A DNA stretch of 64,000 nt from Treponema sp. (lineage in GTDB: Bacteria > Spirochaetota > Spirochaetia > Treponematales > Treponemataceae): NCBI GenBank assembly GCA_024682655.1, contig JAIKYZ010000027.1, forward strand, positions 1,071 through 65,070, read 5' to 3'. This document shows positions 24,468 to 56,677 of the stretch, piece by piece (the stretch's first letter is position 1; each line of letters starts with the position of its first letter). The notes below the pieces were generated by a model. The model ran no database searches, was not told the origin of the DNA, and saw only the letters and a program-made list of their open reading frames with translations. Position numbers and translations under genes: made by a program.

Positions 24468-25658
24468 TTATTTATCGCCAGGGTGTTTTCTATAGAAGGC
24501 AGCCTGTTTCATTAATTCAACAACATCTTTGATGAAAATCTTCTGATTTATAATCTTAATGTGATTGTCCTGCTGGAATTCATAAATTGCCTTAGCCTGA
24601 GCTTCGTGAGGAATACCACACAAATTAGCCAAGTCCTGACAAGAAAGATCACTCTGGTGCTGTTTATTAATAAGTGTATTAACATCGATATTTTTCTTTT
24701 CAAGTTGAAGAGAAAGCATATCAATCATTTTTGCTACTGGATTTGCAAGATTAGCATTATCAAGCTGACGGTACATTGACCACAGTCTTTCGGCTAAAGT
24801 AGTTGTAAGTTTGGCAACCAGCTGTGGTTGTGTTGCAACCATCTGATTAAAGTTTGCTCTGTTGATTACCATTAAATGACAATCTGTATGAGCAATGGCA
24901 CTAGCAGATCTTGGTTTGTTTTCCAATAAAGCCATTTCGCCAAACATATCTCCTTTGTGGAGAATTGCAAGGGTTACTTCGTTTCCATCTACAATTTTTG
25001 AAATAGAAACTTCTCCGCTTTGGATAATAAACATATCTGCACCTGGAGCTGATTCAGAGAAAATCATACAATCTTGTGGATATGAACGAGTCATTTCTGA
25101 ATTTGGTTCAAGATATACAGCATGTGTTTTTGGTTTTAAGAAAGCGAATTTCTTTTTAGCGTCTTCGGCATTTGGACCAACTGGTCTTGTCTTTAAATAT
25201 TGATAATATGCAAATACTGCAATATTGTGCTTTGAAGTTTTTTCGTAGAATCTTGCTACTTTATAAATCTGGTCGTAAGTTTCTGAAACAACTCCTTTTA
25301 AGGTTGCCTTTGTAAGCATTTCGTTCATTACACGCATGCGGTTTGCAAAGGTTTTAATTATTTTTAAAGCAACTGGAGTATTGTTTTTTATGAGATCTGG
25401 ATATTGTTCTTTTTTTACTGAGATTGCTACAACATCTGTCTTTGCGATGGCAGTTTCGATTTGAAGTCTGCCAGACATACAGGCAACTACACCAACGAAG
25501 TCTCCTGGTCCTAAAGCTACAGGAGTTGAACCACTGCCTGTTGCTTTGTAAGATTGAACAGAGCCTTGTTGAATAATATAAAAATGATCACTGTCTGATT
25601 TTCCTTCTACGACCAGATAAGCTCCAGGAGGAAAACGACTAATTTGTAACTGTAGCAC
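24468..25658 (-). CDS. Crp/Fnr-like protein with two cNMP-binding domains (GTG start)
   Basis: two cNMP folds, the second with canonical FGEMALLENKPRSASA; probable C-terminal HTH-like region; SD GAGG. Confidence 0.85.
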   Translation of the reverse strand: MLQLQISRFPPGAYLVVEGKSDSDHFYIIQQGSVQSYKATGSGSTPVALGPGDFVGVVACMSGRLQIETAIAKTDVVAISVKKEQYPDLIKNNTPVALKIIKTFANRMRVMNEMLTKATLKGVVSETYDQIYKVARFYEKTSKHNIAVFAYYQYLKTRPVGPNAEDAKKKFAFLKPKTHAVYLEPNSEMTRSYPQDCMIFSESAPGADMFIIQSGEVSISKIVDGNEVTLAILHKGDMFGEMALLENKPRSASAIAHTDCHLMVINRANFNQMVATQPQLVAKLTTTLAERLWSMYRQLDNANLANPVAKMIDMLSLQLEKKNIDVNTLINKQHQSDLSCQDLANLCGIPHEAQAKAIYEFQQDNHIKIINQKIFIKDVVELMKQAAFYRKHPGDK

Positions 25659-39799: not shown

Positions 39800-39902
39800 T
39801 TAGGGATTGGAGTGGCTTGTCCCAAAGGCCTGTCCTTTGGGATGGAGCGATAGCGGAACCACGGAAAGCCCGACCGCTTTAGCGGGAAGCTCCAAATTCT
39901 AA
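39800..39902. repeat. GC-rich branched palindromic element (REP-like)
   Basis: outer stem TTAGGGATTGGAG/CTCCAAATTCTAA; inner TCCCAAAGG/CCTTTGGGA and CCGCT/AGCGG hairpins. Confidence 0.65.
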
Positions 39903-40762
39903 ATCTTGATTAAAAGTCCATCCCAAGAAGGCATTACTTTTTTAGTGAGTTTTGGAAATTCTTTGAGGTGCTTTTTGATATACTTTTTTGTTGCCCTGTG
40001 GCCGTCGTGGTGGGTCATGTGGGTAAAATAAACTTTTTCTGCCCCGATTTTTTCTGCTGTCTGCATAGCTTGTAAATAATTAAAATGGGTTGAATGTTCT
40101 TTTACGCGAAGGGCATCGATTATAAGCACTTTGAGTTGTCCGCAATTTTTGTGAATTAAATCTATAGATTCCTGGCTGATGTAAGAGCAGTCTGTTAAAT
40201 AGGCAAGGGACTGGGATTTGCCATCTTTTTCTTCGGTTAAAAGCCAGCCCAGAGTTTCTAAATGACCGTGAAGCATTGGAATTGGTGTGATTTTTGTCTG
40301 GCCCAGGTAAAAACTTTCTTTTGCTTCTATCAAATTAACTTTTGCGTGTCCACCGCCTTCTTTTGGGGTAATAAAAAAATAGGAAAAACGGTTTTCTACA
40401 TCTTTGATTGTATTTTGGTTTGTGTAGATTGGAATTGGTTCTGCATCAAAAAAGTGGGCATTTGCTTCGGTCTTCTTAAAACAAACACTGGAATAGGAAC
40501 GTAAATCGTCAATTCCGTGAAGATGGTCGGCGTGACTGTGAGTTAAGAGAAGGGCATCTATTTTATTTACCTTATATTTTAAGGCCTGCAGACGAAATTC
40601 CGGGCCTATGTCTATAAGAATGTATTTATTATCTTTTGTAGTGATGTAAACTGAAGCCCGGTTTCTCTTATCCTTTGGGTTAAGTGACCGACAGACTTTA
40701 CAATTGCAGGCAATAACCGGAACCCCGTTACTTGTACCGCTTCCTAAAACTCTTAATTGCAT
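39899..40762 (-). CDS. PhnP-like metallo-beta-lactamase-fold hydrolase
   Basis: LGSGTSNGVP, THSHADHLHGIDDLR, YLTDC, FTHMTH; start reset to MQLRVLG. Confidence 0.9.
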   Translation of the reverse strand: MQLRVLGSGTSNGVPVIACNCKVCRSLNPKDKRNRASVYITTKDNKYILIDIGPEFRLQALKYKVNKIDALLLTHSHADHLHGIDDLRSYSSVCFKKTEANAHFFDAEPIPIYTNQNTIKDVENRFSYFFITPKEGGGHAKVNLIEAKESFYLGQTKITPIPMLHGHLETLGWLLTEEKDGKSQSLAYLTDCSYISQESIDLIHKNCGQLKVLIIDALRVKEHSTHFNYLQAMQTAEKIGAEKVYFTHMTHHDGHRATKKYIKKHLKEFPKLTKKVMPSWDGLLIKI

Positions 40763-40808
40763 GGGCTTATTATACTGATATTTGTATTGATGGAAAATAC
40801 AGTTTTTT

Positions 40809-40942
40809 ACAAACGGATTTGCTCGCATCTAACGATGCTCCCTTTTTTTTGGTGAATCCCGTTAGGGATGAACAAATCCGTTTGTGATGAAACCTAAAAA
40901 AGTGAATCCCGTTAGGGATGAACAAATCCGTTTGTGATGAAA
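40809..40942. repeat. two 41-bp direct repeats (40852-40892, 40902-40942) plus one inverted variant (40809-40838)
   Basis: GTGAATCCCGTTAGGGATGAACAAATCCGTTTGTGATGAAA twice, period 50 bp; inverted copy GCATCGTTAGATGCGAGCAAATCCGTTTGT. Confidence 0.92.
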
Positions 40943-49349: not shown

Positions 49350-51269
49350 ATGAAGAAGCCGGGAGAAAAAAGGTTAACCTTTGCAGTTTGTGTTTCTGGT
49401 TATAACTGGGAATGGGATTATAGAATTATTAATGGAATTCTTCGTAAATGTCAGAAAAATGATGTAAATCTTTTAATTTTTAATTCTCTTATGCTTAAAG
49501 GAGATTTTCCAAAAGGAATTGAGATAACAAAAAATCTTGTCCGTGGAGAATCAGAAATCTTTAATCTTATCAATTATGATTTGGTTGATGGAGTTATTCT
49601 TTTAGGAGACTCTATTTATCGAAGAAAATCAATTCAAGAAATCTCTGATAAATGTGATTTACATAAAATTCCCTGTATAAACATAAATGACGTACGTACA
49701 AAACTTAAACATAATGTTTATTTGGAAAACACTCATGCAATGGAGCTGGTAGTTGACCATCTTGTAAAGGTGCATAATTGCAAGAGAATCAATTTTATTG
49801 GTGGATATCCTGATAACAAAGAAACAATTGAACGCCTAGCTGCCTATAAAAAAATCCTTACAGAAAATAATATTCCAATTCAGGAAGAAAGAATTGATTA
49901 TGGTCATTTCTGGAAACATTCTGTTGAATGTGTTGAAAAAATGCTTGAATTTGATGTTCCGGAAGCAATTGTTTGTGCCAATGATACAATGGCAGTCTTA
50001 ATTTCTGATTATCTTAAAAACCGGGGATTTAAAATTCCTCAGGATATTATTATTACCGGTTTTGATGGAATTAATGATGCTTTTGCCTATCATCCTACTA
50101 TTACAACCGTTTCTTCAGATTTTGAAAGTACAGGTGCTAGAACTTATGAAATGATGGAAGAACTGATAAAGGGTAATAAGGATATTGGAGATATTACAAT
50201 TCAATCAGAATTAATTATTCAGGAATCTTGTGGTTGTATGCACTTACAAAAGGAAGAGCATAATTTTATAGACAGCCGTTATAACGAAAAGAATTTCACC
50301 CTGGATTTTAATAAGAGACTGGTAAAGACAAATATTTATATTTCAGATTCCAATACTTCTGATGAAATTTATTATCATCTTCTGTCAGGTGCCGAATCTT
50401 TTGGTTTTAAGAGATTTACTTTCTGTCTAAATGCAGATTTGGAAAATAGCAGTAAGTTTTTCTTTAGTAATAATGACCAGAATAATTATGGAATAGCTAA
50501 AAATCTTTTTGAAGTATATTTGGATGAAAACAGTAAGGTATGCCGTAAGGATTTTGAAGCTTCGCAATTGTTGTCTTATGATTTCTTAAATGGTCCTGAG
50601 CCTGTTGTAATGACTTTTTCTCCTTTGTATTACAAGACCTATTTTTTGGGCTATATGGCCTTTGAACCTGTAAAACTAAAACTTGAAGTAGATGGGGATT
50701 ATTTCTTTCTTTATTCTTTACAGGCCGCAAATGAAATTCAGAGTTTTTATGTAAAAAGAGAACTGGAAATTATAAACAAAATAGATTATATGACCGGGCT
50801 TTATAATCGTCGTGGAATGGATAAAGTTTGCAAAGATATTTTAGACGAATTGAAATATGAAAAAAAGCATCTTTATATGCTCTGTGCCGATATAGATAAT
50901 CTAAAAATTATTAACGATAAATATGGCCACGAAGCAGGGGATAGTGCAATTATCCAGATAGCATCAGCAATTAAAAAGGTTTTTGCAGATTATGCCTGTA
51001 TTAGAACTGGTGGAGATGAATTCTGCATAATTATAAGTGAAGACAAAAAAATCAACGTTGAAAAGATGATTAAAAAGGTGGACGAGGAATTAAAAATTTA
51101 TAATAAAAACAGTCAGCTACCTTACAGTCTTTTATGTAGTTGTGGTTATTATTCTCTTGATTCAGATAAATTTATCAGTTTTGAAGATATGCAGAACAAG
51201 GCAGATAGGAATTTATACGAGGTAAAGGCAAAGCATCATCAGAAAAAATTATTTGCCCCAAAAATCTAG
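49350..51269 (+). CDS. diguanylate cyclase with LacI-type sugar-binding sensor domain
   Basis: PEAIVCANDTMA, ITGFDG, PTITTV sensor motifs; DYMTGLYNRR, NDKYGHEAGD, RTGGDEF. Confidence 0.9.
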   Translation: MKKPGEKRLTFAVCVSGYNWEWDYRIINGILRKCQKNDVNLLIFNSLMLKGDFPKGIEITKNLVRGESEIFNLINYDLVDGVILLGDSIYRRKSIQEISDKCDLHKIPCININDVRTKLKHNVYLENTHAMELVVDHLVKVHNCKRINFIGGYPDNKETIERLAAYKKILTENNIPIQEERIDYGHFWKHSVECVEKMLEFDVPEAIVCANDTMAVLISDYLKNRGFKIPQDIIITGFDGINDAFAYHPTITTVSSDFESTGARTYEMMEELIKGNKDIGDITIQSELIIQESCGCMHLQKEEHNFIDSRYNEKNFTLDFNKRLVKTNIYISDSNTSDEIYYHLLSGAESFGFKRFTFCLNADLENSSKFFFSNNDQNNYGIAKNLFEVYLDENSKVCRKDFEASQLLSYDFLNGPEPVVMTFSPLYYKTYFLGYMAFEPVKLKLEVDGDYFFLYSLQAANEIQSFYVKRELEIINKIDYMTGLYNRRGMDKVCKDILDELKYEKKHLYMLCADIDNLKIINDKYGHEAGDSAIIQIASAIKKVFADYACIRTGGDEFCIIISEDKKINVEKMIKKVDEELKIYNKNSQLPYSLLCSCGYYSLDSDKFISFEDMQNKADRNLYEVKAKHHQKKLFAPKI

Positions 51270-51357: not shown

Positions 51358-52656
51358 ATGCCTTATACCGAGCCAACAAGTCTTGCGATTGTTGCCTGTC
51401 CTGGTGGCGAAGCTTTCGCCAATGAAGTCATAACGCACCTTAAACACATGTACAAACACCGCTTCACTTTGAAGAACGATGTTGTGTCAAAGCGTTATGA
51501 GCTGACTAAAGAAGAGCTTGTACAAAAGATTAATCTGCAGAACGATTTGCAGACTAGTGATGTTTGTATAAGAGGTGCTACTAATAAGTACAGACCGCCT
51601 GTATTCAAAGTTAATGCACGGTTTACTTATTTTGCTAATGGTGAGGTTAAGACCGAACTTTTAGACACTGTCCGTGGAAAAGATGTATTTATTTTCCAGG
51701 ATGTAGAAAACCACGAAGTTCTTGAATTGAACGGTGGTGCAAACAAAATCAGAATGACTGTAAACGATCATGTTATGTCATTACTGGTTACTATTGATGC
51801 TGTTCGTATGGCAGGTGCAGGAAATATTACACTTGTAGTTCCAGCCTATCCATATGCTCGCCAGCACAAAAGAAAGGGCCGCGAAGGACTTACAGCTAGT
51901 CTTTTAGGTCACATTTATGAAATGCAGAGCGTTTCTCGTATTATTACACTCGATTTACATTCCCGTGAAATTCCTAATGCATTCTCAAGATTAAATCTTG
52001 ATAATCTTCATGCAAGTTATCAGATTATCCGTGAATTGGGCAAAATCGTAGATTTAACTGGGCAGACAGAAGATATGGTTATTGTTTCTCCTGATACAGG
52101 TGCCATTGACCGTAATAAATTCTATGCTTCTGGTTTAAAACTCCCACTTGCTATGATTTACAAAGAGCGTGATTATTCTATCGTAACTCAGGATGCTCAC
52201 TCTACAAATATTAAATCTGTAAAACTTTTAGGAGATGTAAAGGGTAAGGTTGCATTCCTGGCTGATGATATGCTGGGTACAGGTGGAACTTTACTTAAAG
52301 CTATGTCTTTCTTAAAAGAACAGGGCGCTACAAAAGTTATTTGTGCAATTTCTCTTCCATTCTTTACAGGTGATGCAATTAAAAACTTTGATGAAGCTTA
52401 TGAAAAAGGACTTTTCTACAGAATCATCGGTACAAATGCAGTTTACCACGAAGAACTTTTAAACAGAGAATGGTACATTTCAACAGATGTAAGTGGTCTT
52501 TTTGCAAATGTAATTACAAGAATTCATTATAATCAGTCTTTAAGCGAACTTCTTGATAACCGTAATATTATCGAAAAGGTAGTAAAACAGAGTCCAGCAG
52601 GACAATCAAAAGTTGCTGCAAGTACAGACGAAAATGAAAAAAAGGAAGATAAATAG
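51358..52656 (+). CDS. prs: ribose-phosphate pyrophosphokinase, long variant
   Basis: FANGEVK, PYARQ, TLDLH, SPDTG, DDMLGTGGT. Confidence 0.9.
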   Translation: MPYTEPTSLAIVACPGGEAFANEVITHLKHMYKHRFTLKNDVVSKRYELTKEELVQKINLQNDLQTSDVCIRGATNKYRPPVFKVNARFTYFANGEVKTELLDTVRGKDVFIFQDVENHEVLELNGGANKIRMTVNDHVMSLLVTIDAVRMAGAGNITLVVPAYPYARQHKRKGREGLTASLLGHIYEMQSVSRIITLDLHSREIPNAFSRLNLDNLHASYQIIRELGKIVDLTGQTEDMVIVSPDTGAIDRNKFYASGLKLPLAMIYKERDYSIVTQDAHSTNIKSVKLLGDVKGKVAFLADDMLGTGGTLLKAMSFLKEQGATKVICAISLPFFTGDAIKNFDEAYEKGLFYRIIGTNAVYHEELLNREWYISTDVSGLFANVITRIHYNQSLSELLDNRNIIEKVVKQSPAGQSKVAASTDENEKKEDK

Positions 52657-52661
52657 GTCTG

Positions 52662-53807
52662 ATGACTGAAAGTGTCTTTGTCCTTGATATTGGAACGACT
52701 TCACTAAAGGCAGGATTAGTTTCTGCTGATGGTGAGGTCGTTTTTATTTTTAGAAAAAAGTATTTTGCTCCCCTTTCCCTTGATGTTTCAAAATATTGGT
52801 TATCGGCTTTTGACTTAGCTTTCCAAAAGGCTAAAAAATTTTCAAAAAAGCGGGATATTCAGATTAAGGCAATTTGCATTTCTGGAAACGGTCCTACAAT
52901 TGTCGATTGCCGGGGAAAAACTCTTTTATGGAATGGCAGTAATATTCCTCTTGAGCTCAAAGAAAAAGCCCGCCTGGAATTAGAAAAAATCAACCTGCAG
53001 TTAAAAGAAAAAAATATCCATTCTTTATTTCTTCCAAGAATATTATTATTTAAGGAAGTTTACAAAAATTCCTTTGATAAATCGTCTTATATTTTTTCGG
53101 GGCCTGAATATTTAATTTACAAATTAACCGGCCAGGCCCTTACAATTTTACCGGAAAAACGTTATCAAGCTGCCTATTGGGATTCGGCTCTTTTAGATTC
53201 TCTGGGCTTAGCGGCCGAAAAATTCCCTGCCTTTGTAAATACTGCTTCTTTGTCTGGATATTTTAAGGGCCTTCCAGTATTTGCCGGCGGGCCTGATTTT
53301 ATTGTCGCTTTAATTGGTACAAATACTTTAAGTCCAGGAAAAATCTGTGACAGGTCTGGTTCTTCAGAAGGAATTAATCTTTGTGTAAATAAAGAAATTC
53401 ACCGGGATGGCCTTAGAACTCTGCCTTCCCTTATTCCTGATTTGTGGAATTGCTCTGTTTTAATTCCAAATAGCAGTAAATTAAGGGAAAACGAAAGATT
53501 AGGTAAACTTAAAGAAGGTCTTAAACTTTTACAGGAGCTTTCAAAAGAAAATGATTTTGAATTCCCTCTGAAAATGAAAGTTACCGGAGGTCAGACTAAA
53601 AATTCCTTCTGGATGCAGAAAAAGGCTACATTTCTTGAGATGGAACTGGAAGTTTGCGATTGTCCGGATTCTGAACTTTTGGGGGACGCCTGTATAGCCT
53701 GGATGGGTCTTGGAAAATATCAGTCTTTAGGTCAGGCTGCCCAGGTTATTTCAAAAGTAGAAAGAAGTTACAAAGCCCAGACTGAGAAAAATTTGCTTAA
53801 GGACTAA
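52662..53807 (+). CDS. FGGY-family carbohydrate kinase, compact
   Basis: LDIGTTSLKA, AICISG, VTGGQTK, LLGDACIA. Confidence 0.8.
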   Translation: MTESVFVLDIGTTSLKAGLVSADGEVVFIFRKKYFAPLSLDVSKYWLSAFDLAFQKAKKFSKKRDIQIKAICISGNGPTIVDCRGKTLLWNGSNIPLELKEKARLELEKINLQLKEKNIHSLFLPRILLFKEVYKNSFDKSSYIFSGPEYLIYKLTGQALTILPEKRYQAAYWDSALLDSLGLAAEKFPAFVNTASLSGYFKGLPVFAGGPDFIVALIGTNTLSPGKICDRSGSSEGINLCVNKEIHRDGLRTLPSLIPDLWNCSVLIPNSSKLRENERLGKLKEGLKLLQELSKENDFEFPLKMKVTGGQTKNSFWMQKKATFLEMELEVCDCPDSELLGDACIAWMGLGKYQSLGQAAQVISKVERSYKAQTEKNLLKD

Positions 53808-53810
53808 ATT

Positions 53811-54464
53811 ATGACAGTTTATAAAATTCCTCAAAATCTAAAAGCAATTATTTTTGATATTGATTCAACTCTCTACACCAATTCTGCTTATGCTTTTGAA
53901 CAGGTTGATTGTCAGGTTAGACAGTATGCAAAAGAGATTGGAATTACTGCCGAAGAAGCTAGAAAAAAGGTCGCTGATTATAGAAAACTCTTTGCCCAGG
54001 AACATGAGGGAAAAAAAGTAAGTCTTGGAAATACCTTACTTGCCTTTGGAATTCCAATTGAAAAGAGTGTAGAGTGGAGAAAATCACTTTTAGAGCCTGC
54101 CAATTTTTTGAGCCGGGACCAAAAATTATTTGAAGAACTTAAAATCTTGCAAAAAGAATATAAATTGATTTGTGTTACAAATAATCCTGTTTTACCTGCC
54201 AGAAAAACTCTGGAGGCCCTGGGAATAAGTGAATTTTTCCCGGAAATTGTGGGATTAGATAGCTGTTTTAAATCAAAACCTGCCCTGGAACCTTTTATGA
54301 AAGCCTGCCAGATACTTGAATTAGAAGCCCAGAATTGTCTTGCTATTGGTGACCGTTATGATATGGATATTTCTCTGCCTCTTGAAATGGGTATGGGGGG
54401 AATTTTAGTAAAAGGGGTTAGTGAAATATATAATTTACATTCAATAATTTCCTTTAATGCATAA
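53811..54464 (+). CDS. HAD-superfamily hydrolase
   Basis: FDIDSTL motif I, VTNN, KP, IGDRYDMD. Confidence 0.9.
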   Translation: MTVYKIPQNLKAIIFDIDSTLYTNSAYAFEQVDCQVRQYAKEIGITAEEARKKVADYRKLFAQEHEGKKVSLGNTLLAFGIPIEKSVEWRKSLLEPANFLSRDQKLFEELKILQKEYKLICVTNNPVLPARKTLEALGISEFFPEIVGLDSCFKSKPALEPFMKACQILELEAQNCLAIGDRYDMDISLPLEMGMGGILVKGVSEIYNLHSIISFNA

Positions 54465-54491: not shown

Positions 54492-55331
54492 ATGGAAATC
54501 AAAGATTTTAGCGACAAGGTAGAATTTACCAATGATGGAAGGCTTTCTTTGTTTTTTGTGGGGACAGGATCAGCTTTTTCCAAGGAATTCTTTCAAAATA
54601 ATCTAATAATTGTAAAGGGAAAGGATCACATCTTGATTGACTGTGGAACTTTATTACCTTTTATATTAGAAGTTGCTTATCACACAAGTATATCTGAAAT
54701 AGAAAACGTTATTTTAACTCATCCACATGCAGACCATATTGGTGGAGTAGAAGAATTAATCTTAAACGGCAGATATGTTAAAAAATCTAAAATAAATATA
54801 ATTATAACCGACGAATTTAAAGAACTTTTGTGGGAACAAACTTTAAGGGGTGGTTGTCAGTATAGTGAAGACGGAAAAATGACTTTTGATGATTATTTTA
54901 ATCAGATTAAGCCTGCTGAAATTCCTGGAACTCCCTGGCCTATGTGGGAAGCAAATATTGGTTCTATAAATATTAAACTTTTCAGAAGTTTTCATGTTAC
55001 TACAATGCCTAATTCCTTTGAAAATTCACAGTTTTCTGTTGGTATGATTATTGATGATAGAATTTTATTCCCTGGCGATACTCAATTTAAGCCAGATCAG
55101 CTTGATTGGATTTTAAATCATTACAATATTGAATGTATTTTCCATGACTGCGATGTATCTGGTTTTAGCGAAGGAGTTCATGCTACTTATCAACAGTTAA
55201 AAACTCTTCCGGACGAGGTAAAGAAAAAAATGTATTTATGCCATTACAATAAAAGTGCCTGTAAAATCAATTCAAAGGCAGATGGATTTGCAGGTTTTGC
55301 TCGTAAAGGTAAGTATTATATTTTTGATTAA
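54492..55331 (+). CDS. MBL-fold metallohydrolase, Apyc1-like putative cyclic-nucleotide phosphodiesterase
   Basis: GTGSAFSK, LIDCG, THPHADHIGGVEE, FHV, GDT, FHDC, GVHA, LCHY. Confidence 0.8.
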   Translation: MEIKDFSDKVEFTNDGRLSLFFVGTGSAFSKEFFQNNLIIVKGKDHILIDCGTLLPFILEVAYHTSISEIENVILTHPHADHIGGVEELILNGRYVKKSKINIIITDEFKELLWEQTLRGGCQYSEDGKMTFDDYFNQIKPAEIPGTPWPMWEANIGSINIKLFRSFHVTTMPNSFENSQFSVGMIIDDRILFPGDTQFKPDQLDWILNHYNIECIFHDCDVSGFSEGVHATYQQLKTLPDEVKKKMYLCHYNKSACKINSKADGFAGFARKGKYYIFD

Positions 55332-55372: not shown

Positions 55373-56677
55373 ATGAAAAAAATTCTGATTGCATCTACAA
55401 ATGTTGGTGTAATTGATATTGTAAAAAGTGTCTGTAATAAATTTGCCTTATACTTTGATCCTATTTTTTGTCCTGATACAGAAGAAGCTTTAAGCTTTAT
55501 TGATTATGAAATTCCAGAAATTAAAATCCTTGATTTTACCAGTAGCACTATTGATTCTTTTAGGATTTTAAACGCAATCGATTCTGACCCTTGGCTTCAT
55601 AACGGTGGAATTATTGCAATTGTTAAAGATAAAAAAACTGTACAGGAATTTGAATCTAAGAAAAATCCTAATATCCTTGCAATTCAGGTAATTGAAGCTT
55701 TTAAAGAAAATTTTGAAAGACTTCTTAAGATTCTTTGGAATAATCAGCAGTTCCTTTTTAATCGAGGAATGCAGGAATCTATAAACGGTGTTGAAAAAGG
55801 AAAATTTATTTGTGGAAATGATCCTTTTGATATCCGAATGTATGCAAGTTTCCTGGTGAATTATTTATATTGTACAAACCGAATTGATGAAGATGGTCGT
55901 TATGCCCTTCAAACTACTTTTATGGAAATGCTTACAAACGCCCTTGAACACGGTAACTGTAATATTTCTTATGAAGAAAAAAGTAAGTGGTTGGAAAAGG
56001 GTGGAAATATTCTTGATTTAATTAAGGAAAAATCAAAAGACCCTGTGATTGGTGCTAAAAAAATCCACATTGAATATGTTATTGGAAAGGAAAAATCTAC
56101 TTTTACAATTACAGATGAAGGTGATGGTTTTGATTGGCGTTCAAGAGTTCAAAATGATGACTTTACAATGGAAACTCATGGACGTGGAATCTTTATGTCC
56201 AAAAATCTTGTTACAGGATTAACTTACAATGATAAGGGTAATCAAGTTTCTTTTGAAATACAAAATCTTATGAACGTTTCTAATAATGTTCCTTTGATTA
56301 TGTCTACCTTTGCAACTGTTCAATATACAAAACATCAGATTGTTTGCCGTCAGAATGAACCTTCAAATGATTTATTCTTTATTGTGTCGGGCCGATATGG
56401 AGTTTATGTGGATGGAAAATTACTTTCTGTTCTTACTCCAAAAGATATATTTATTGGCGAAATGGCCTTTCTTTTGAATGACCGTCGTTCAGCTACAATT
56501 ATGTCTGCTGGGCAGGGACAGTTGATTCGTATTCCTAAAGTTTCTTTCTTGAATCTTATTAGAAAAAATCCACACTATGGAATATTCCTTTCTAAACTTT
56601 TGGCTCAGAGAGTAACAAATCAAAATCGTAAAACAATTGAACTTTCCAACGAAATCCTGGAATTAAAAAATAAATAA
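55373..56677 (+). CDS. receiver-like + RsbW-type HATPase + cNMP-binding domain protein
   Basis: PEIKILD; EMLTNALEHGN, DEGDGFD, HGRGI, YNDKGN; FIGEMAFLLNDRRSAT. Confidence 0.85.
   Translation: MKKILIASTNVGVIDIVKSVCNKFALYFDPIFCPDTEEALSFIDYEIPEIKILDFTSSTIDSFRILNAIDSDPWLHNGGIIAIVKDKKTVQEFESKKNPNILAIQVIEAFKENFERLLKILWNNQQFLFNRGMQESINGVEKGKFICGNDPFDIRMYASFLVNYLYCTNRIDEDGRYALQTTFMEMLTNALEHGNCNISYEEKSKWLEKGGNILDLIKEKSKDPVIGAKKIHIEYVIGKEKSTFTITDEGDGFDWRSRVQNDDFTMETHGRGIFMSKNLVTGLTYNDKGNQVSFEIQNLMNVSNNVPLIMSTFATVQYTKHQIVCRQNEPSNDLFFIVSGRYGVYVDGKLLSVLTPKDIFIGEMAFLLNDRRSATIMSAGQGQLIRIPKVSFLNLIRKNPHYGIFLSKLLAQRVTNQNRKTIELSNEILELKNK

Follow-up and report, generated by a model that had tools for sequence, protein, structure and literature searches.

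A chromosomal Apyc1-family gene in a Treponema genome, a candidate housekeeping cyclic-nucleotide phosphodiesterase

Results

The locus and its reading frame

We analysed a window of 64,000 nucleotides (positions 1,071 to 65,070 of contig JAIKYZ010000027.1) from the MAG of a gut or rumen Treponema, 2.74 Mb in 151 contigs and 94% complete. Positions 54492..55331 of the window hold, on the + strand, one open reading frame (ORF) of 279 aa with an ATG start in the ORF listing. It stands in a co-directional string of genes. Upstream lie genes for a PRPP synthetase (51358-52656, +), an FGGY-like kinase (52662-53807, +) and, immediately before it, a HAD hydrolase (53811-54464, +); downstream follows a gene for a 434-aa protein with an RsbW-like HATPase_c_2 domain and a cNMP-binding domain, both assigned with Pfam (55373..56677, +). 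The gaps along this string are 5, 3, 27 and 41 nt, and it is followed by a convergent formate-THF ligase gene and by genes for a dCMP deaminase, a pseudouridine synthase and citrate synthase. No terminator-like sites were found on the + strand between 51935 and 57000. Sigma-70 promoter-like sites were as common as in shuffled sequence (31 vs 31.2) and are therefore uninformative on operon structure. The ORF at 54492..55331 probably shares one transcript with the PRPP synthetase, FGGY and HAD genes, and in this strain the downstream neighbour is probably on that transcript as well. The co-directional string is headed by a 639-aa protein (49350-51269, +) that joins a LacI-type periplasmic-binding-like domain to a GGDEF domain; its counterpart at locus L025 is 44% identical.

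The original prediction assigned this ORF to the Apyc1 family from a series of eleven motifs, all of which are present in the translation in the order stated: GTGSAFSKEF..N at residues 24-37, LIDCG at 48-52, THPHADHIGGVEE at 76-88, LWEQTLRGGCQYS at 113-125, DYF at 134-136, FHV at 167-169, DTQF at 196-199, FHDC at 217-220, GVHA at 228-231, LCHY at 249-252 and FARKGKYY at 269-276. The corresponding profile match, described below, is far beyond chance. Named homologues carry the source label 'MBL fold metallo-hydrolase [Treponema sp.]'.

Family membership and predicted structure

The Apyc1 family consists of class II phosphodiesterases with an MBL fold and a binuclear metal site, which convert 3',5'-cyclic mononucleotides (cNMPs) to 5'-NMPs and are relaxed in their base specificity, accepting cCMP and cUMP as well. 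The translated ORF matched PF23023 (Anti-Pycsar_Apyc1) with 106.7 bits (E = 1.8e-30; gathering cut-off 50 bits), residues 19-278 covering profile positions 4-246 of 250, and this was the single match to the model in its genome. Among PDB sequences, the best matches were three Apyc1 entries, 7T28 (E = 1.5e-35), 7U2R (5.6e-33) and 7U2S (1.8e-30), with the next MBL protein after the Apyc1 chains at E = 3e-5. A tblastn search of 50,697 phage records matched 42 Bacillus phages, the founder SBSphiJ among them, at 30-34% identity over more than 90% of the query; for the Apyc1 proteins of SBSphiJ and BSP38 the identity was 31-34%. A single-sequence search for related loci returned mostly generic MBL proteins through the THPHADHI pattern, the true relatives being L022-L026.

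An AlphaFold2 model built on a 103-row alignment had a mean pLDDT of 97.0 and a pTM of 0.94. Foldseek against the PDB placed 7U2R, 7U2S (two chains) and 7T28 at ranks 1-4 (E = 1.1e-24 to 9.2e-19, TMt 0.83-0.93), at 27-30% identity to the query model. Weaker matches included a B. anthracis ElaC homologue and YhfI (about 1e-13). The predicted fold is that of an Apyc1-like MBL protein. Profile, sequence and fold all uphold the claimed homology, and 54492..55331 holds a genuine Apyc1-family gene that is intact and chromosomal.

The window encodes a second MBL-fold protein (39899-40828, -) of the PhnP family. Its closest match is the 6B9V diphosphatase (E = 3e-45), and it also lies near the Brucella AMP/GMP-bound proteins 3QH8 and 3MD7.

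Catalytic residues and the Apyc1-specific loop

Residues were compared in two alignments, one of 11 sequences including four phage enzymes and one of 103 sequences spanning the family. The HxHxDH metal-binding motif (H77 P H79 A D81 H82) is read directly from the codons cat cca cat gca gac cat at 54720..54737 (+). Residues H77, H79, D81, H168, D196 and H230 are invariant in both alignments, and in the larger one conservation reaches at least 90% for H82, E87 and H251. Two residues of SBSphiJ Apyc1, E74 and Y112, are auxiliary catalytic residues supplied by the opposing protomer. In the 11-sequence alignment they correspond to E87, whose codon lies at 54750..54752 (+), and to Y124. Both E74 and Y112 are needed for cCMP hydrolysis by the SBSphiJ enzyme (Hobbs 2022, PMC9117128). 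The position of Y124 holds Y or F across the whole close Treponema clade and is variable family-wide, even the Paenibacillus enzymes having no Y there.

Y124 falls within the Apyc1-specific loop GGCQYSEDGKMTFDDYF (residues 120-136; 54849..54899, +), located by alignment. This loop was so termed by Hobbs 2022 (PMC9117128) and by Tesson 2024 (PMC11724313), and the latter tied its length to activity. In Apyc1 enzymes it binds nucleotide and extends into the pocket of the partner protomer. The spacing from GG to DYF is 12 residues in the query, against 14 in SBSphiJ, 13 in BSP38, 11-12 in the Paenibacillus enzymes and a median of 12 in the phage/Paenibacillus clade. As judged from these alignments, the loop is of normal length, and the metal ligands and both auxiliary catalytic residues of Apyc1 are conserved.

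Phylogeny and clade features

A maximum-likelihood tree of 125 sequences resolved three well-supported groups of 13, 46 and 60 rows. The 13-row clade holds phages SBSphiJ, BSP38 and G together with both Paenibacillus enzymes, and the 46-row clade consists of unnamed representatives. Within the group of 60, the query falls in a 36-row clade (aLRT 95) whose members are only Spirochaete sequences and unnamed representatives. This 36-row clade separates into a same-genus part, which includes the query, and a part from other families, a split that fits vertical inheritance.

Two features set the query clade apart from the phage/Paenibacillus clade. The N-terminus is longer by about 16 residues (23 vs 8 residues before GxGxAF), which form an extra beta-strand in the AlphaFold2 model, and the segment from H168 to D196 is about 8 residues longer (27 vs 19). 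These additions could alter the specificity of the query clade, whose identity to the Apyc1 proteins assayed so far is no higher than about 30-35%.

Genomic neighbourhood

The order PRPP synthetase, FGGY-like kinase, HAD hydrolase and Apyc1 homologue was kept in eight other loci of the same genus and in all the metagenomic contigs consulted, and in some relatives these genes overlap. In other families of the order, the Apyc1 gene is flanked on one side by a divergent gene for an M23-type peptidase and on the other by htpG (L103-L115). The upstream genes there, on the opposite strand, encode a PSP1-like protein, a small unknown product, a bactofilin and the M23 peptidase, and htpG is followed downstream by an ArfB-like gene. 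Among these other-family neighbours, which were named by eye from representative sequences, no conserved cNMP-related gene was found.

The original prediction saw no phage context at this locus, and the wider comparison bears this out: the neighbours are housekeeping genes, the gene order recurs in other Treponema genomes, and no phage-like or mobile surroundings were found at any Spirochaete locus examined. A protein of anti-Pycsar counter-defence would be encoded by a phage, a prophage or a mobile element; here we found housekeeping neighbours, synteny shared between species and a clade of nothing but Spirochaete sequences and unnamed representatives.

The HAD hydrolase at 53811-54464 (+) adjoins the Apyc1 gene genus-wide. 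Its best NCBIfam matches are TIGR02253 and a pyrimidine 5'-nucleotidase model (61 bits, below cut-off), and it might act on the 5'-NMP product. The HATPase_c_2 and cNMP-binding gene between the Apyc1 gene and FTHFS is a strain-level indel in human-gut Treponema.

Cyclic nucleotide signalling in the genome and its relatives

The genome contains ten matches to the class III cyclase domain. Nine of the ten were confirmed as large multidomain sensory proteins (L122-L130), with Reg_prop/Y_Y_Y beta-propeller, HNOBA, receiver, CHASE2, dCache-HAMP and 7TMR-DISM domains; four of these nine scored about 195-200 bits on the Guanylate_cyc model. Nine cNMP-binding domains are present in seven proteins. Two of the nine are found in one 399-aa ORF, a further cNMP receiver, near the ribosomal/ECF region of the window (about 24831-25637, -; C70:25901-26707). 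Among other phosphodiesterase families, PF02112 (PDEase_II) had no match, NF041851 gave nothing near its cut-off and none of six metallophosphoesterases matched a CpdA model, although in a MAG that is 94% complete the absence of these families is no proof. PADLOC gave weak to moderate PycC matches on class III cyclases. We considered and rejected a Pycsar system in this genome, as the matches amounted to PycC cross-matches of sensory cyclases through the common cyclase domain, with no cyclase-effector pair evident.

We then compared 61 related genomes. PF23023 was matched above its cut-off in 34, a further genome had one truncated copy, and the gene was missing from the remaining 26 (about 43%). 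Cyclases were present in all 61 (2-25 each), so that the 26 genomes lacking the Apyc1 gene still have at least two. The Apyc1 homologue is therefore not the indispensable or unique eraser of cNMPs in the lineage, and another, unrecognised phosphodiesterase must exist there and may exist here too. Carriers had more cyclases than non-carriers (mean 10.1 vs 5.5; Mann-Whitney p = 0.0008, uncorrected for phylogeny), and the link between carriage and cyclase number was not significant within the genus (p = 0.30).

Proposed function and alternative explanations

We consider it likely that this Apyc1-family member, which is chromosomal and inherited vertically, degrades the cell's own cNMP signals rather than acting as a phage counter-defence protein. 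The sensory class III cyclases of this Treponema would make a cNMP, most likely cAMP and/or cGMP, which the Apyc1 homologue would degrade; its removal would reset the signal read by the cNMP-binding proteins. The many cyclases and cNMP-binding proteins, together with no other recognised cNMP phosphodiesterase, make such an eraser role plausible. The original prediction had spoken of the housekeeping cNMP phosphodiesterase of a signalling circuit. That proposal is reasonable and supported: the housekeeping role fits this genome, with its at least nine sensory cyclases, seven cNMP-binding proteins and lack of any other recognised family of cNMP phosphodiesterases. A caveat is that 26 of 61 relatives lack the gene, which is thus neither unique nor indispensable as an eraser in the lineage.

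The ORF might instead encode another MBL nuclease or phosphodiesterase mislabelled by similarity (an RNase Z/BN-like tRNA-processing enzyme, a PhnP-like enzyme or a 2',3'-cNMP phosphodiesterase), which we regard as highly improbable. The MBL fold is common to all of these candidates, one source names a homologue 'ribonuclease BN', and copies in several phage records are annotated as ribonuclease Z. The original prediction had itself pointed to RNase Z and PhnP as clades that might prove closer, and neither did. No NCBIfam equivalog was reached in the profile search, the RNase Z (TIGR02651) and PhnP (TIGR03307) models scoring 36.5 and 17 bits against cut-offs of 292.95 and 272.25. Apyc1 was decisively nearer both in sequence and in fold (Foldseek E = 1e-24, compared with 1e-10 to 1e-12 for RNase Z and 6e-9 for PhnP), and a separate PhnP-family MBL protein is already encoded in the window (39899-40828). 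Also very unlikely is that the enzyme serves the host by regulating or switching off an immune signal (cCMP/cUMP) of the Pycsar type, as suggested for some host homologues of Apyc1. Apyc1 enzymes cut both cCMP and cUMP, the possibility was raised by Hobbs 2022 (PMC9117128), and the PADLOC matches could be taken to point the same way. However, these are the cross-matches expected of a common cyclase domain, and all nine cyclases examined are large multidomain sensory proteins. The best PycC-like protein, L126, is a REC-cyclase with a response-regulator gene before it and a gene for a large multi-pass membrane protein after it; no recognisable small Pycsar-type effector adjoins it, and there is no defence island around the Apyc1 homologue.

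The neighbouring genes suggest two further explanations. The Apyc1 homologue could have a metabolic role in a nucleotide/sugar-phosphate salvage operon with the PRPP synthetase, the FGGY-like kinase and the HAD phosphatase (for example, taking cNMP or a different phosphodiester by way of NMP to the nucleoside). Close packing of the four genes throughout the genus (3-27 nt gaps here) and the pyrimidine 5'-nucleotidase model as second-best NCBIfam match of the HAD protein speak for this. However, both the HAD and the FGGY assignments lie under all curated cut-offs, and outside the genus the linkage is missing, M23 peptidase and htpG genes taking its place, so that it may reflect merely inherited gene order; we find salvage quite unlikely. 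Somewhat less so, but still unlikely, is that the eraser and the protein at 55373-56677 form a dedicated, previously undescribed cNMP-gated partner-switching module. The two genes are on the same strand, 41 nt apart, with a good SD before the second; the neighbour combines an ATPase domain of the RsbW type with a cNMP-binding domain that is intact; and the adjacency is seen again in L003, L018, L022, L023, L025, L143 and L145-147. Against this, the two genes adjoin each other only in a subset of one genus, other Spirochaete families having the M23 peptidase and htpG arrangement, and 18 other genomes carry both but on separate contigs or at a distance of 14 kb. An orthologue of the neighbour is present in 36 of 61 relatives, with no phyletic association between the genes (both in 23 genomes, Apyc1 only in 12, neighbour only in 13, neither in 13; Fisher p = 0.29; odds ratio within the genus 0.86). 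One and the same Apyc1 protein (P0072) is encoded both where the neighbour is present (L143) and, in more cases, where it is absent (L142, with 11 similar places, and L144). These four results (distribution, adjacency, co-occurrence and strain polymorphism) show that the pairing is facultative. The two-gene module as an obligate system is largely refuted, and we rejected a conserved partnership on the grounds of synteny, phyletic pattern and strain polymorphism.

Degradation of the cell's own cNMP signals remains our preferred reading. A more ambitious version of it, which we hold to be unlikely, is that the Spirochaete clade, with its additional N-terminal strand and its 8-residue insertion beside metal ligand H168, is a functionally distinct Apyc1 subtype. 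It would then be the main eraser of cNMPs in gut and rumen treponemes, whose sensory-cyclase networks are unusually large, and in some strains it would be coupled transcriptionally to a cNMP-gated RsbW-like kinase, which would make a built-in feedback loop.

Relation to known enzymes

Among the Apyc1 structures, 7T28 is the enzyme of phage Bsp38, and 7U2R and 7U2S are bacterial enzymes from Paenibacillus (Hobbs 2022, PMC9117128). The phage enzymes (SBSphiJ, Bsp38) share with the query the Pfam family, the HxHxDH/His/Asp ligands, equivalents of E74 and Y112 and a similar loop length, 7T28 matching the model with a Foldseek E of 9e-19 and a TMt of 0.83. Unlike them, the query is chromosomal in a Spirochaete, has a housekeeping context and no anti-defence setting, belongs to another clade and carries the N-terminal extension and the longer segment after H168. 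The best structural matches are the enzymes of Paenibacillus sp. J14 (7U2R) and P. xerothermodurans (7U2S), at E = 1e-24 and TMt 0.90-0.93. Like the query, the bacterial Apyc1 proteins of Paenibacillus and of Tesson 2024 belong to the same family and are encoded by non-mobile chromosomal genes; the Paenibacillus enzymes are about 27-30% identical to the query and group with the phage rather than the Spirochaete clade.

Enzymes with the role proposed for the query are known from other families. B. subtilis YhfI and related proteins (6KNS/6KNT) are MBL-fold homodimeric cNMP phosphodiesterases preferring cAMP/cGMP, but they are far more distant from the query (sequence E = 0.59, 16% identity, Foldseek E about 1e-12, TM about 0.65-0.78), and the YhfI group has no Apyc1-specific loop. 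CpdA (class III) and PDEase_II (PF02112, class II) have the same proposed job, the removal of cAMP, and their families are unrelated or distantly related to the query.

Chromosomal Apyc1 homologues and a housekeeping role for them are already in print, and the present gene is an added member from a Spirochaete clade; it reveals no new mechanism or system. Many closely related bacterial proteins were reported by Hobbs 2022 (PMC9117128), who raised a possible role for host Apyc1 in the control of Pycsar or of other cNMP signalling. In Tesson 2024 (PMC11724313), about 81% of 2,301 Apyc1 instances lay in non-mobile chromosomal DNA, and Apyc1 was argued to be bacterial in origin, to serve for housekeeping cNMPs and to have been co-opted by phages several times. 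Several bacterial homologues cleaved cNMPs in that study, with activity depending on loop integrity; several cleaved all four, a housekeeping regulation of cNMPs was proposed, and some of those tested were weak or inactive. The main text of that paper mentions neither Spirochaetes nor Treponema, and our search, among the papers available to us, for a Treponema cAMP phosphodiesterase or a cNMP-degrading enzyme of gut or rumen treponemes found none. The gene is a concrete candidate cNMP phosphodiesterase for these treponemes, which carry many sensory adenylate/guanylate cyclases. In addition, a vertically inherited Spirochaete clade is a further piece of evidence for Apyc1 having begun as a housekeeping enzyme of bacteria and having been taken up by phages later.

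One member of the 60-row clade, P0132 (40% identical to the query), is encoded on a contig (L148:1-10873) with a run of many small same-strand ORFs, among them NAMPT, radical SAM, thymidylate synthase and ParB-CE proteins and an ORF that strongly matches a PHROG. The contig may belong to a phage; if so, it would hint that phages acquired Apyc1 once more, from the 60-row clade.
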